Notes: generated from the letters alone by a model not told the origin. 64,000 bases of DNA from Actinomycetota bacterium (GCA_026392355.1 JAPLCF010000041.1:4561-68560); one strand, 5' to 3'; numbered from the stretch's first letter, positions 43,005 through 57,532 are shown. Numbers and translations: made by a program.

Positions 43005-43396
43005 TCTTCGTCGACTCGAACGTGCCGATGTACGTCATCGGCGACGATTTGGTGCAGCGGCAGCGCGCCGAGGCGCTCTGCGACCGGCTCGTTTTGAGCG
43101 GCGAGCAGATCGTCACGAGTGCCGAGGTCTACCAGGAGATCATGCACCGGTATCGATCGATCGGCCGGCTTGCATCGATCGCCAAGGGCTTCGAGCACCT
43201 GGACATCATCGTCGACGACGTGCTCGCGATTGATGTCGACGACGTACGTAGTGCGCATGCCATCCTCGATCGCACGCCGGACTTCGATGCGCGCGATGCG
43301 TTGCACATCGCGACGATGGTCCGGCATGGCATCACACGCATCGCGTCGTACGATCGGGGATTCGATCGGGTATCGGATATCGAGCGCCTCTCATGA
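43001..43396 (+). CDS. vapC: PIN-domain toxin VapC
   Basis: IFVDSNV, EVYQEI, DARDALHIA, SYDRGFD acidic PIN residues. Confidence 0.9.
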   Translation: MIFVDSNVPMYVIGDDLVQRQRAEALCDRLVLSGEQIVTSAEVYQEIMHRYRSIGRLASIAKGFEHLDIIVDDVLAIDVDDVRSAHAILDRTPDFDARDALHIATMVRHGITRIASYDRGFDRVSDIERLS

Positions 43397-45036
43397 CCCG
43401 CCTCGGCGGCCACGTGATCGCCGACCAGCTGGTCGCGCAGGGCGTCGACACCGTGTTTGGTGTGGCGGGCGAGTCGTTTCTCAGTGTCCTCGACGGCCTG
43501 TGGGAGCGGCGCGATCACATCCGCTACGTCGGTGCACGCCATGAGGCCACGGCCTCGCACATGGCGGAGGCGTGGGGGAAGCTCACCGGGCGCCCAGGCG
43601 TGTGCCTCGCCACGCGTGGCCCGGGCGCCACGCACGCTTCGATCGGCGTGCACACCGCCTTTCAGGACTCGACGCCGATGCTGCTCTTGCTCGGGCAGGT
43701 ACGACGCGAGCATCAGGGGCGCGAGGCATTTCAAGAGGTCGACCTGCCCGCGATGTTCGCGCCGCTCGCCAAGTGGACTGCGCAGATCGAGACGGCCGAC
43801 GACATCCCGGAGATGCTCGGCCGCGCGTTCGAGATTGCCCTCGCCGACCGGCCCGGTCCTGTCGTGCTTGCGCTGCCCGAGGATATGCAGCGCGAGCTGA
43901 CCGACGCGGCCGATGCACCGTTCGCCGAGCCGGCGCTGCGCGAGCCGGCCGCGGCCGATCTTGATCGGCTGCATACGTGGCTCGGCGACGCAGCGCAGCC
44001 GCTCGTGATCGTCGGCGGCCCGCGGTGGAGCCAGACAACGGCGGATGCGCTCGCGGAGTGGGCGGTGGGCTCGGCCGTGCCCGTCGCGGCGCAGTTCCGC
44101 CGCCAGGACCGCATCGACAACGCGTCGCCGGCCTACGTGGGCGACCTCGGCCTCGGCACGAACCCGGCGCTCGAGGCACGCGTCGCCGAAGCCGACCTAG
44201 TTGTCCTCCTCGGCGGGCGCTTCGGCGAGATCCCCAGCGGCGGCTACACGCGCCTGCCGGTGGAGCGCCGCTTGGGGCATCTGGTTGCGCACGTGCACGC
44301 GGAGCCATCGGAGCTCGGGCGCACGTGGCACCCCGATCTCGCCATCGCCGCCGCTGCGCCGCTCGTCGTCGAAGGGCTCGTCGCGCGGGGACCACTCGGC
44401 CGGCAGCCGCGCGCGATGTGGGCGCAATCGCTGCGTGGCGATTACGAGACGTGGAGCGAGCCCACCGTGCGCGACCTCGCCGGCGTCGACCTTGGCCAGG
44501 TCGTACGCCACCTGCGCGACACGCTGCCCGACGACGCCGTGATCACCAACGGCGCGGGCAACTACACCGTCTGGATCCATCGCTACTACCGTCACCGCCG
44601 CTACGCGACGCAACTCGCACCGACCAGCGGCGCCATGGGGTACGGCATCCCCGCCGCGATCGCGGCCGCGCTGCACGACCCGTCGCGAACGGTCGTGGCC
44701 TTTGCCGGTGACGGCTGCTTCCAAATGGCCGGGCACGAGCTCGCCACGGCGGTGCAGGTCGGCGCGCGCATCATCGTGCTGGTCTGCGACAACGGCATGC
44801 TCGGCACGATCCGGATGCATCAGGAGCGCTCGTTCCCCGGCCACGTCGAGGGCACCGCGCTCGCCAACCCCGACTTCGCCGCGCTCGCGGTTGCCTACGG
44901 CTGCCATGCCGAGCGCGTCGAGCGCGATGCCGACTTCCCCGCCGCCTTCGCCCGGGCCCGCGCCGCCGACGGGCCGGCGCTGATCCACCTGGTCTGCGAC
45001 CCGAGCGCGATCACGCCGGGCGCGCTACTCGCGTAG
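43393..45036 (+). CDS. Thiamine pyrophosphate-dependent enzyme (acetolactate synthase large subunit-like family)
   Basis: GESFL, RHEATA..MA, TRGPGATH, SGAMGYG, GDGCFQM...DNGMLG (GDG-X-N). Confidence 0.9.
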   Translation: MTRLGGHVIADQLVAQGVDTVFGVAGESFLSVLDGLWERRDHIRYVGARHEATASHMAEAWGKLTGRPGVCLATRGPGATHASIGVHTAFQDSTPMLLLLGQVRREHQGREAFQEVDLPAMFAPLAKWTAQIETADDIPEMLGRAFEIALADRPGPVVLALPEDMQRELTDAADAPFAEPALREPAAADLDRLHTWLGDAAQPLVIVGGPRWSQTTADALAEWAVGSAVPVAAQFRRQDRIDNASPAYVGDLGLGTNPALEARVAEADLVVLLGGRFGEIPSGGYTRLPVERRLGHLVAHVHAEPSELGRTWHPDLAIAAAAPLVVEGLVARGPLGRQPRAMWAQSLRGDYETWSEPTVRDLAGVDLGQVVRHLRDTLPDDAVITNGAGNYTVWIHRYYRHRRYATQLAPTSGAMGYGIPAAIAAALHDPSRTVVAFAGDGCFQMAGHELATAVQVGARIIVLVCDNGMLGTIRMHQERSFPGHVEGTALANPDFAALAVAYGCHAERVERDADFPAAFARARAADGPALIHLVCDPSAITPGALLA

Positions 45037-45039
45037 ACA

Positions 45040-45172
45040 CATTGGATCCGGATCCAAATTGTCCCGATTTTGGTCATTTTGGATCCGGATCCAAATTGTC
45101 CAAGAACGTGCAAATCTGGACCCGGGTCCAAATCAGCACGAAGCATGCGAATCTGGACCCGGGTCCAGATTC
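45040..45172. repeat. Four palindromic units TGGA(T/C)CCGG(A/G)TCCA at exact 37-bp period
   Basis: Cores at 45043-45056, 45080-45093, 45117-45130, 45154-45167. Confidence 0.9.
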
Positions 45173-45186
45173 GTTAGGTTCTCTCC

Positions 45187-45954
45187 ATGAAGATCTACGC
45201 ACTCCATTGCGGTGGTGATCTGCAGGACGTCGGGATCTTCGACTACGAGCATCCCCAGGCGGGCGAGGCGCTCTACAACCCGTACTACATGTACGTCATC
45301 ACGCATGCGCAGGGCAACGTGCTGCTCGACACGGGCGCGCACCCGACGTTGCGCACCGATCCACGCTCGCGGCTTGGTGACATGGCCGATGTGTTTGAGG
45401 CGCTGCTGGAGCCCGACGACACCGTGCCCGGCTGTCTGGCACGCATCGGCATGACACCGGAGGACATCAGCGTCGTCGTGCAGTCGCACCTGCACTTTGA
45501 CCACGCGGGTGGCCTCGAGCACCTGCGCCACGCGCCCGTCTACGTGCAGCAGGCCGAGCTCGACTTCGCCTTCGATCGCACGCATGATCAGGCCGAGATC
45601 TACCTCGTCGACGACTTCAACGACGGCGTCGACTGGCGGCCGATTTCCGGCGAGCACGATCTCTTCGGTGACGGCACGCTGATGCTGCACTCGACGCCTG
45701 GGCACACCGCCGGGCACCAGTCGCTGTGGGTGCAGACGCCGAGTCGGCCCACGTTTCTGCTCTGTGACGCGGCCTATCTGATCGAGCCGATGCGCGGTCG
45801 GCGCCTGCCTGGCGTGCTCTGGAACGGCGACGCAATGCTCGACTCGTGGGAGCGAATCGAGGCGATCGAGCGCGACACCGGAGCACGGCTGATCGCCACG
45901 CACGCGCTCGACTACGAGACCGCGGTGCCGAAGCCGCCGGACGGCTGGGAGTAG
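45187..45954 (+). CDS. N-acyl homoserine lactonase (AiiA/AttM)-family metallo-beta-lactamase
   Basis: LLDTG, SHLHFDHAGG, TPGHTAGHQS, CDA.Y, ATH. Confidence 0.88.
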   Translation: MKIYALHCGGDLQDVGIFDYEHPQAGEALYNPYYMYVITHAQGNVLLDTGAHPTLRTDPRSRLGDMADVFEALLEPDDTVPGCLARIGMTPEDISVVVQSHLHFDHAGGLEHLRHAPVYVQQAELDFAFDRTHDQAEIYLVDDFNDGVDWRPISGEHDLFGDGTLMLHSTPGHTAGHQSLWVQTPSRPTFLLCDAAYLIEPMRGRRLPGVLWNGDAMLDSWERIEAIERDTGARLIATHALDYETAVPKPPDGWE

Positions 45955-45989: not shown

Positions 45990-46832
45990 TCAGTCGGGCG
46001 CGCTGAGCAACTGCTCGACGTTCTCCACGAACCACTCGCCGCCGTGGTCGGGCGCCAGGCGTAGCGCGTTGGCGCCGTGCTGCTCGACGAGGTCGCAGGC
46101 GCGACGCAGCTCGTCGAGGCGGGTGGCGTACGCCGTGGCGTCGGCGACGTCGGGGTCGTGGCCCTCAAGTGCGAACGCGGGGTCGAACGGTGCCAGGCGC
46201 TGGAGCAACGCGCGCGTGCCCGCCACCGTCAGGTAGGCAGGGTCGCCCCAGAGGCACTGGTAGAGCGCATCGCCGAGGAACAGCACACGATCCTCGGGTT
46301 CCCAGATCACCACCGAGTCATCGGCGTGGTCGCCGCCGACCCAGCACAGCTCGACCGTCGTGTCGCCGAGGTCGACGTGATGCGACTCGGCGAACGTGAC
46401 CTGCGGCACGACGATGCGCAGCGATGTGCGCTCGTCTTCGGTGAACTCCTCGAGCAGGTGCGGGAGAGAGAACGCGAGCTCGAGCCCGTCGTCGACGCGC
46501 TGCCGCAGCGCGTTCTCGTCCCACGCGTAGTCGGCCTGGACGGCGACACCGGCCGCCGTCCGCTCCGACGCCAGCACCGGCACGTCGAGCGCAGCCGAGC
46601 CGAACGAGTGGTCCCAGTGCCAGTGCGTCAGTGCGATGCCGACGATCGGCGGGCGATTGTGCGCCTCGAGTTCTGCCGTGAACGCAGCGAGGTGCGCGGG
46701 CGACGCACCGCCGTCGACGATCAGCGTGCCGGCGGTGCCGCGGATCGCGCCGAGCACAGGACGATCAGTACGCTCGTCGGGCGTGAAGCGATCCACGCGA
46801 GGCGAGACTTTCTCGAAGCGGCAGTCAGGCAT
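45990..46832 (-). CDS. MBL-fold metallohydrolase
   Basis: IVDGG, LTHWHWDHSFG, GGDHADDS, LFLGDA, EGH. Confidence 0.85.
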   Translation of the reverse strand: MPDCRFEKVSPRVDRFTPDERTDRPVLGAIRGTAGTLIVDGGASPAHLAAFTAELEAHNRPPIVGIALTHWHWDHSFGSAALDVPVLASERTAAGVAVQADYAWDENALRQRVDDGLELAFSLPHLLEEFTEDERTSLRIVVPQVTFAESHHVDLGDTTVELCWVGGDHADDSVVIWEPEDRVLFLGDALYQCLWGDPAYLTVAGTRALLQRLAPFDPAFALEGHDPDVADATAYATRLDELRRACDLVEQHGANALRLAPDHGGEWFVENVEQLLSAPD

Positions 46833-56380: not shown

Positions 56381-56763
56381 GAGGCCTCCTTGTCGACACC
56401 AGTGTGCTGATCGAAATCGAGCGCGGTGCTTTCGACCTCAAAGCAGTTGAGGGCGGGGAGGATGTCGGCGTCGCGGCAATCACCGTTACCGAGCTCCTCC
56501 TCGGTGCGCGTCTCGCGATCGGAGCGATGGCCGAGCGCCGTCAGCGCTTCGCGGAGCACGTCGTCGAGACGTGCGCTGTAGTTCAGTACGACACGGCGAC
56601 GGCCCCGCACCATGCCGCGCTTCTCGAGCACTGCCGGCGAGCCGGCACCATGCGTGGCGCCCACGACCTGATCATCGCCGCAACGGCACGCGCCACGGGT
56701 CGCACCATCGTCACGCTTGACCGCACCGGGTTTCTCGACCTGCCGAACGTCCGCGTGCGTTAG
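56377..56763 (+). CDS. vapC: PIN-domain toxin VapC
   Basis: LVDTSVLI, ITVTELLLG, AHDLIIAATA, TLD. GTG overlaps the antitoxin TGA. Confidence 0.9.
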   Translation: MRGLLVDTSVLIEIERGAFDLKAVEGGEDVGVAAITVTELLLGARLAIGAMAERRQRFAEHVVETCAVVQYDTATAPHHAALLEHCRRAGTMRGAHDLIIAATARATGRTIVTLDRTGFLDLPNVRVR

Positions 56764-57482
56764 GAGCGGCCGTACTCGATCACGTGATCGAGCCAGGCGT
56801 CGATCAGCGTGCGAGCGTGGGGGAGCATGCGATCGGCGTTGTCTGCGACACCGCTGAGCAGTTGGTCGAGACCACCCGGTCCGAGCACGTTCTCTGCCGC
56901 CGTCTTGTAGGCCGGGATGCGCGACCACTCATCGGCGAGCGCCGCATCGACCTCCAAATGGAACTGCACGCCGTAGGCAACCTCGCCGAAGCGGAAGCCC
57001 TGGTTCGGGTACGCCGGGCTGGAGAACAGCGAGACCGCGCCCTTGGGTAGGTCGAAGGTATCGCCGTGCCATTGCAGGGTCTTGAAGCGCTCCGGCAGGA
57101 TCGACGCGACGGGATCAGAGCCGCCGTCTTCGGTGCGCATGACGTCGAGGATGCCGACCTCGGGCGCGGCACCCGGATAGACGCGCGCGCCGAGGGCTGC
57201 GGCCAGCAGCTGGACGCCCAGGCACGCGCCGAAGTACGGCAGGCCGGCGCGCACGGCGTCGCCGATCAGCTGCTTCTCAGCGACCAGCCACGGGTAGGCG
57301 TCGTCCTCGTACGCGCCCATCGGTCCGCCCATCGCCACGATCGCGCCGAAGTCGCGCCAATCGGGCAGCGGCTCGCCCTCGTCGACCTCAACGGTGTGAA
57401 GGGTGTGGCCGCGCGACGTGAGCACCGTGCCGTACTCGGCGGGCGGCTCGCAGGCGATGTGCTGGAGAACGAGGATGTCCAT
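56760..57482 (-). CDS. Type 1 glutamine amidotransferase (GMP synthase-like)
   Basis: GGPMGAY, GACLGVQL (Cys nucleophile), QWHGD, QFHLE. Confidence 0.92.
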   Translation of the reverse strand: MDILVLQHIACEPPAEYGTVLTSRGHTLHTVEVDEGEPLPDWRDFGAIVAMGGPMGAYEDDAYPWLVAEKQLIGDAVRAGLPYFGACLGVQLLAAALGARVYPGAAPEVGILDVMRTEDGGSDPVASILPERFKTLQWHGDTFDLPKGAVSLFSSPAYPNQGFRFGEVAYGVQFHLEVDAALADEWSRIPAYKTAAENVLGPGGLDQLLSGVADNADRMLPHARTLIDAWLDHVIEYGRS

Positions 57483-57532
57483 ACGGCGATTCTAGTGCCG
57501 GTCGGGCCTGTGATCGTACGACCCTCGCTCGG

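Follow-up and report, generated by a model that had tools for sequence, protein, structure and literature searches.

Four palindromes standing at an exact 37-bp period upstream of a lactonase-like gene belong, in our reading, to a lineage-specific family of the REP/RAYT type in freshwater Thermoleophilia/Gaiellales, with the cognate transposase, RAYT-A, encoded on another contig of the genome. We put the probability of this reading at about 0.85. The array is not a dedicated regulator of the lactonase-like gene, and its function for the host is much less certain than its REP/RAYT identification. What sets the family apart is the combination of dyad-symmetric units that have no GTAG head, strictly in-register arrays, and helix-turn-helix (HTH)-bearing transposases. 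The REP/RAYT kind is ordinary; the lineage and the architecture are new relative to the searchable literature.

The four-unit array and its flanking genes

The window is the whole stretch of 64,000 nt that was analyzed, and its source assembly (G000) comprises 2.40 Mb in 50 contigs, 93.7% complete, with 67% G+C. As listed in Table 1, the array contains four palindromic cores of 14 bp, two of TGGATCCGGATCCA (at 45043 and 45080) followed by two of TGGACCCGGGTCCA (at 45117 and 45154); the positions and the step of exactly 37 bp given in the original prediction were thus confirmed. A ~30-bp palindrome surrounds each core, and a 7-nt linker completes the period. When genomic copies were aligned, the outer arms, 8 nt on each side of the core, proved to be conserved and the variable part was the linker alone; the earlier description of the sequence between cores as largely unique is therefore not upheld. 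The T-type unit reads GGACAATT-TGGATCCGGATCCA-AATTGTCC and the C-type unit TGCAGATC-TGGACCCGGGTCCA-GATCTGCA, in the latter frequently with one more base pair (G…C) per side. Units 1 and 2 do share 23 nt, and unit 4 is a perfect palindrome as had been reported, with a length of 26 bp (45148-45173) for which the previous 24 bp was a lower bound. With 49 to 55% G+C, against 67 to 78% in the flanks, the array is AT-richer than its surroundings, and no further copy of its cores was found in the window; both points agree with the prediction. The array is very probably a cluster of REPs (repetitive extragenic palindromes), formed by a T-type doublet and then a C-type doublet.

Table 1. Positions of the array units, the neighboring genes, and the three transposase genes (window coordinates unless a contig of G000 is given)
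Feature	Position	Strand	Remarks
Upstream gene, thiamine-pyrophosphate (TPP) enzyme, acetolactate-synthase-like	43393..45036	+	
Probable REP unit 1, T-type	45035..45064		core TGGATCCGGATCCA 45043-45056; outer arms degenerate; 3 mismatches to 30-mer T consensus
Linker CGATTTT, 7 nt, units 1/2	45065..45071		
Probable REP unit 2, T-type	45072..45101		core 45080-45093; 23 nt common to unit 1
Probable REP unit 3, C-type	45109..45138		core TGGACCCGGGTCCA 45117-45130; in 37-bp register with preceding T-type unit
Probable REP unit 4, C-type	45146..45175		core 45154-45167; adjoins -10-like hexamer
TAGGTT, -10-like hexamer	45175..45180	+	6 nt before ATG at 45187
Downstream gene, MBL-fold hydrolase, leaderless	45187..45954	+	best similarity to AttM/AiiA-type N-acyl-homoserine lactonases, sub-threshold
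RAYT-A, RAYT-type Y1/HUH transposase, single-copy	G000:C5:56641-57357		239 aa
Second RAYT-type gene	G000:C9:608558-609355		265 aa, HTH_23 match; flanked by 41-nt palindrome CGTGATGTTCCAAAGGGGTCAGACCCCTTTGGAACATCACG, core GGGGTCAGACCCC
Third RAYT-type gene	G000:C11:102290-103120 (L017)		276 aa; flanked by 66-nt inverted repeat, core CCTCGAGG

An assembly artifact is excluded, because an independently built Logan contig of 5,580 nt spans 44850-45291 without a single difference, and the unit number agrees with this second assembly. The metagenome from which that contig was built is the best-matching one and probably the source sample. A contig from a metagenome of another study joins 45112 to 45150 and skips exactly 37 bp, that is, it carries a deletion allele.

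The array stands between two genes that almost adjoined each other in the ancestor. The TAG stop of the TPP-enzyme gene (45034-45036) touches unit 1, whose left arm overlaps it, and ~150 nt of very stable hairpins follow right after this stop; at the other side, the array ends 1 nt from the -10-like box of the lactonase-like gene. As RNA, the array folds at -87 kcal/mol (z = -10), and the minimum-energy fold pairs units 1 and 2 with each other, and likewise units 3 and 4, such that a doublet can form one long hairpin. Between 44800 and 45400, a permissive Rfam scan matched no known RNA family; its only hits resembled microRNA precursors, as those of any long hairpin would, and scored far under the gathering scores. 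Simple scans of the array region found neither a sigma-70 promoter nor a terminator consisting of a hairpin plus T-tract. The hexamer TAGGTT presumably works as the promoter -10 of the lactonase-like gene. The product of this gene reached 155 bits against AttM/AiiA-type AHL lactonases, for which the cut-off is 390; judged from this similarity, the name "lactonase" is no more than plausible. A second MBL-fold hydrolase gene (45990-46832, minus strand) lies tail to tail with the first, 35 bp apart.

A dispersed repeat family and its candidate transposase

The genome-wide scan for the core and its spacing, suggested as a check along with the original prediction, revealed 62 exact matches to TGGAYCCGGRTCCA and 81 with one mismatch, compared with 2 for a reversed-pattern control, and 26 of 32 neighboring exact cores were spaced 37 bp apart. 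With 30-mer consensuses and up to 8 mismatches allowed, 80 units (56 T-type and 24 C-type) were identified at 35 loci, and the controls yielded 0 to 1. Doublets are the commonest form (21 loci), followed by three units (6 loci) and by single units and groups of four (4 loci each). Among 15 pairs of heterotypic neighbors, that is, a T-type unit beside a C-type unit or a unit beside a G-type one, 11 kept the exact 37-bp spacing (4/7 in G000 and 7/8 at loci of other genomes).

Gene positions, taken from a crude GC3-based ORF caller, placed 21 of the 35 loci in convergent-gene intervals (background 17%, p = 2e-8) and only 2 in divergent ones. At many loci, the outer arms lie 0 to 8 nt, often 0 to 3 nt, from stop codons on both sides. 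Since the loci are found mostly at convergent gene ends, their placement is that expected of REP-type elements and not of operators.

Palindromy is well maintained in the family: 84% of 1,200 arm/core pair positions were complementary. Arm variants paired better within a unit (158 mismatches) than between the two units of a doublet (198 mismatches), the within-unit pairing being better in 16 doublets and worse in 5. No G:T wobble bias that would name the transcribed or single-stranded strand was present (GT+TG 39 versus AC+CA 42). The linkers show a weak T-rich consensus only, which is clearest as CGYTTC in C-type doublets, and the T-rich linker side agreed with gene direction in 8 doublets and disagreed in 7, so there is no preferred direction. 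In the outer flanks of the units, we found neither a conserved tetranucleotide nor a GT(A/G)G head, and nearby stop codons were the only recurrent feature.

Three genes for PF01797 (Y1/HUH) transposases are present in G000. The RAYT-A gene is bracketed exactly by T-type doublets at 56538-56604 and 57425-57491; one doublet is the inverted copy of the other, and the inner units of the two are the mirror-image variants TGGTGCCGGATCCA and TGGATCCGGCACCA. Such bracketing of the enzyme gene by inverted units recurs in five other genomes (G015, G021, G003, G013, and G018). Thus, the statement that no cognate protein is adjacent to the array holds locally, and the cognate enzyme is very probably the one encoded on contig C5. 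RAYT-A was missed by the GC3-based gene caller because of its low GC3 composition; its gene has 58% G+C and 68% GC3, which is atypical for a genome of 67% G+C.

The other two RAYT-type genes are also flanked by repeats of their own, which gives three enzyme-repeat pairs coexisting in this genome. The family with the GGGGTCAGACCCC core comprises ~45 units at ~24 loci, mostly as doublets 64 to 77 bp apart, and fits the published TIRYT consensus GGGG[AT][CG]A[CG], while that with the CCTCGAGG core is found as paired hairpins at ~20 loci. Past the 3' end of the C11 gene, four 48-bp tandem repeats (L017 913-1104) are made of the CCTCGAGG-type word.

For all three proteins, the best NCBIfam model was NF047646, "REP-associated tyrosine transposase," with 52 to 74 bits, which is under the curated cut-off of 80 bits; as a protein, RAYT-A scored 22.9, just under the Pfam cut-off of 23. 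The HUH motif (HYH/HHH) and the tyrosine motif RY[IV]xxNPV are invariant in the three transposases, and each carries a C-terminal HTH_23-like helix-turn-helix. A profile built from the three sequences matched E. coli TnpA-REP (4ER8) in the PDB at E = 2e-6, and the IS200/IS605 TnpAs at 0.5 to 0.8; a phmmer search of the PDB with RAYT-A alone retrieved nothing. In a wider sampling of the phylum, 65 of 301 genomes contained RAYT-like genes at E <= 1e-8, and 27 were above the curated cut-off. RAYT-like genes are therefore common in the phylum, and the protein family itself is no surprise.

Co-variation in the genus and state of the orthologous junctions

T/C cores were detected in 10 of the 25 genomes of the genus, at 11 to 62 copies each, and at 0 to 1 copies in 16 genomes from other families of the order. 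A search for the exact T-type doublet across 185,579 species, each with one representative, returned only about ten freshwater actinobacterial MAGs, labeled Thermoleophilia or Gaiellales. Orthologues of the C5 enzyme (at least 56% identity) are present in 7 of the 10 core-bearing genomes versus none of the 15 others (Fisher p = 2.5e-4). G007 and G024 contain cores and no detectable orthologue, and both are fragmented MAGs.

The core that flanks the enzyme gene changes along with the enzyme. It is T-type in G015, G021, G008, and G005, whose enzymes are 63 to 69% identical to that of C5, and TGGGTCCGGCCCCA in G022 (72% identity). In G003 (56% identity), the flanking core is C-type, as are all 17 of the 17 cores of that genome. 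The enzymes of G006, G013, and G018 are more distant (40 to 45% identity) and are flanked by TGGGCCCGGGCCCA, of which each genome carrying this clade has 3 to 45 copies. Five genomes have neither an enzyme of the C5 family nor any of the cores TGGATCCGGATCCA, TGGACCCGGGTCCA, and TGGGCCCGGGCCCA. These data indicated that transposase clades track the symmetric core variants TGGATCCGGATCCA, TGGACCCGGGTCCA, and TGGGCCCGGGCCCA (T-, C-, and G-type), which differ symmetrically at two variable pairs (AT/AT, AC/GT, and GC/GC). The symmetric T>C / A>G pair that had been noted to preserve the palindrome is thus real, and because the flanking cores track the protein clade, it separates two REP subfamilies, to each of which a separate transposase clade of the genus corresponds. 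As for the C-type units of G000, a tblastn search of this genome with the C-flanked enzyme of G003 detected no extra copy and no remnant; these units are either mobilized in trans by the T-type enzyme, or their own enzyme has been lost or is unassembled.

The same co-variation bears on the idea that the hairpins are structures selected by the host, which spread and were kept for their use as bidirectional terminators or protectors of mRNA 3' ends, with the Y1 link incidental or the enzyme domesticated for another task. The enrichment of loci between convergent genes a few nucleotides from stops, the compensatory changes that maintain palindromy, and the very stable folds would all suit such a role, and REP325 of E. 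coli acts both as a terminator and as an mRNA stabilizer (bioRxiv 10.64898/2026.03.23.713779). Host selection leaves unexplained, however, why a transposase gene is bracketed by inverted copies, why transposase clades track core variants, and why enzyme-free genomes lack all three cores; in addition, the units have neither a T-tract nor an orientation bias. We therefore consider it improbable as the full account. A useful function and RAYT-driven spread are compatible, and host selection mostly complements the REP/RAYT reading.

Orthologues of the lactonase-like gene were identified in 17 of 24 congeners at 81 to 97% identity, and the junction between this gene and the TPP-enzyme gene differs among them. 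It is empty in G009, G010, and G011, which have a 9-nt gap and in which the first three bases of the -10-like TAGGNT double as the TAG stop. G003 also has no REP there, with a 23-nt spacer from the TAG stop to TAGGGT and 32 nt from the stop to the ATG. Relative to the empty junctions of these relatives, the array in the window is an insertion. Other genomes contain a C-type doublet (G008), a T-type doublet (G024), or four T-like units plus a remnant (G022). One junction of G021 (L040) has a T-type doublet plus a remnant, next to a lactonase protein 95% identical to that of the window; on a second contig of G021 (L057), the arrangement is T-C-C, which equals the window array minus one T unit (1 or 2), and the protein of this close relative is 97% identical. 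The occurrence of two versions of the junction in the MAG G021 points to a strain mixture in the bin. The junction of G006 (L046) is occupied by an unrelated hairpin, CTTTGCTTTGGTGCC/TGGCACCAAAGCAAG, and thus the site seems to draw different palindromic insertions.

In all lactonase orthologues, TAGGNT-N6-ATG is kept, with or without REPs. The start signals of the gene thus do not require the array, and the array is no conserved operator. The original prediction had offered, as one possibility, a cooperative operator in which a dimeric regulator would control the lactonase-like gene by binding the four palindromes as duplex DNA, with successive sites facing opposite sides of the helix; the dyad symmetry, the regular spacing, and the position directly upstream of the -10-like box would suit such a role. 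That proposal is already contradicted by the comparative data and is very unlikely: the same palindromes occur at 35 loci, 21 of them between convergent gene ends and 2 between divergent genes; the orthologous junction has no site in G009, G010, G011, and G003 and 2, 3, or 4+ units of mixed type in others, with the -10 and the ATG unchanged; and no regulator gene is adjacent. In contrast, the REP/BIME-like reading, put forward in the same prediction, is borne out by the dispersed loci at gene 3' ends, the unit-flanked RAYT-type gene, and the empty or variable orthologous sites.

Filled and empty sites were also compared elsewhere in the genome. At eight other loci, the flanks, when joined, are contiguous in the REP-free G004, G009, and G011. 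At C2:9660, for instance, these three genomes read GTCTGA directly followed by TCAGTAC, the convergent stops abutting, and G000 has a 70-nt doublet exactly between the two. No target-site duplication was seen at the filled/empty site pairs. This result argues against a MITE of a conventional (DDE) transposon family, moved via terminal inverted repeats, although such an origin would suit elements that are short, palindromic, dispersed, and of higher AT content than the genome, as well as the presence at G000:C9:574867 of a related element of ~115 bp whose terminal inverted repeats are of the GGATCCGGGTCC type. Bracketing by units was found for one gene alone, which encodes a Y1/HUH transposase, and unit-wise in-register arrays are not MITE-like, so we give a MITE origin very little credence.

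The last possibility, a mini-array, CRISPR-like or other, whose transcript would be cut into ~37-nt RNAs, could cite the regular period, the hairpin in each unit, and the C-type doublet that a metatranscriptome contig carries from some related locus, but it is hardly credible, because conserved hairpin arms and a 7-nt linker, not unique sequence, make up its "spacers", arrays have 1 to 4 units and never >4, Rfam gives sub-threshold microRNA look-alikes only, the orthologous junction holds no units or 2, 3, 4, or more in relatives, and the family is tied to a transposase instead. The RNA evidence came from one metatranscriptome, which contained about 4% of the sampled words and yielded a single contig with a C-type doublet, from a different locus. 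In run X23 (freshwater metatranscriptome), a 202-nt RNA-library contig aligned to 45114-45170, the C-type doublet, with 3 differences and then continued into unrelated sequence. Some C-type locus in a related organism may be transcribed, or this may represent DNA carry-over.

Relation to known REP/RAYT systems and a possible mode of growth

The family resembles the REP/BIME elements and TnpA-REP (RAYT) of E. coli and Gammaproteobacteria (Nunvar 2010, PMC2817692; 4ER8) in having many short extragenic palindromes at gene 3' ends. As in the E. coli-type system (PMC2817692), compensatory change keeps palindromy, enzyme and repeat co-vary between genomes, and a single-copy HUH/Y1 gene lies between inverted copies. 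Unlike canonical REPs, the units lack the GT(A/G)G head, and unlike those of E. coli, they are near-perfectly dyad-symmetric and have no intrinsic orientation. BIMEs have alternating orientations and motif-bearing linkers, whereas the clusters described here are in-register tandems with a fixed 7-nt linker. The enzymes are also larger, with ~240 to 275 aa and a C-terminal helix-turn-helix versus the 165 aa of E. coli TnpA-REP, and the host is an actinobacterium, in contrast to the Gammaproteobacterial systems.

Similarities are also evident with the REPINs of Pseudomonas fluorescens (Bertels & Rainey 2011, PMC3116915): doublets are commonest (21/35 loci) and can fold as one long hairpin, and the elements, being non-autonomous, depend on a single-copy RAYT and are retained at orthologous sites in different species. 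Unlike in REPINs, the arm covariation favors the folding of a unit on itself, and odd-number and mixed-type arrays occur in exact register. The latter suggests that single 37-nt units can also be added.

At the level of motifs and architecture only, the enzymes match TnpA-REP subclass 2.1 / RAYT Group 1, including the TIRYTs (Quentin 2018, PMC6006769; Bertels 2017, PMC5581495), which are characterized by a length of ~238 aa, by xH[YF]H or NH[YF]H as HuH motif and Y[IV]xLNP as Tyr motif, and by a C-terminal HTH_23-like domain, and the second repeat family of G000 has a TIRYT-type GGGGTCAG core. The 2018 survey reported no REP-like sequences for subclass 2.1, and Actinobacteridae with IS200-type Y1 enzymes only (PMC6006769); each enzyme of G000, in contrast, has a clearly dispersed repeat family. 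With IS200/IS605, the system shares a catalytic domain of the Y1/HUH type, subterminal hairpins that serve for recognition, and insertion that generates no target duplication. It differs from IS200/IS605 in that it lacks a tnpB partner and combines a single-copy enzyme with multi-copy hairpins, and the profile matches TnpA-REP far better than IS200/IS605 TnpA.

Homotypic slippage can account for the alleles that gain or lose 37 bp, but it cannot make a heterotypic in-register junction; the simplest reading is that new units are joined at a set distance from a hairpin already present. If it works like E. coli TnpA-REP and IS200/IS605, RAYT-A would recognize the hairpin on single-stranded DNA, cut at a fixed offset, and re-join the DNA with no target duplication. 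Such an offset would be expected if the Y1 enzyme positioned its cut relative to the foot of the hairpin, by analogy with IS608 and E. coli TnpA-REP. In this way, units or doublets would join hairpins that are already there, in strict register, or enter short palindromic junctions between two stops, and homotypic units might also be gained or lost in 37-bp steps via slippage or unequal recombination. At the present site, an element would have landed in the original gap of 9 to 32 nt between the TPP-enzyme stop and the leaderless lactonase-like gene. The array presumably replaces the DNA upstream of the lactonase -10 box, including the former -35 region. Going by what REP325 does in E. coli, the 3'-terminal hairpins of the upstream mRNA probably stop or pause transcription and/or block 3' exonucleases.

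A wider joint reading is tentative, and we regard it as doubtful in its entirety. It holds that clearly dispersed REP families are here linked for the first time to HTH-bearing, subclass-2.1-like RAYTs, and that no REP/RAYT system had been described before in Actinomycetota; that their growth mode is unlike that of classical REPs, headless dyad-symmetric 37-nt units being added singly in strict register, with insertion favoring gaps of zero to a few nucleotides at abutting convergent stops; and that they serve as insertable bidirectional terminators/insulators in a streamlined 2.4-Mb genome.

The analysis does away with an attractive but mistaken annotation of the array as a regulatory site of the lactonase-like gene. 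It would also document a REP/RAYT system in uncultured freshwater Thermoleophilia/Gaiellales, in contrast to the 2018 survey (PMC6006769). The pairing of enzyme clades with symmetric core variants is a natural experiment that could help show how a RAYT reads its hairpin, and insertions precisely between abutting stops bear on how a compact genome tolerates or uses mobile hairpins. In addition, the variation of unit number in 37-bp steps provides a ready strain marker and is a source of contig breaks in the MAGs of this lineage.

Longer repeats were also observed on contig C9 of G000. At 574867-575400, there is a cluster of ~115-bp elements that together form a composite palindrome and whose terminal inverted repeats are hybrids of T and C half-sites (AGGATCCGGGTCCA ... 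TGGACCCGGATCCT); these may represent a longer relative of the T/C repeat family. At 303397-303660, a T/C-hybrid unit on one side and a C-type unit on the other enclose three ~60-bp tandem repeats that contain GCCGGATCCATGTCATGCAGAACGGCCCC.
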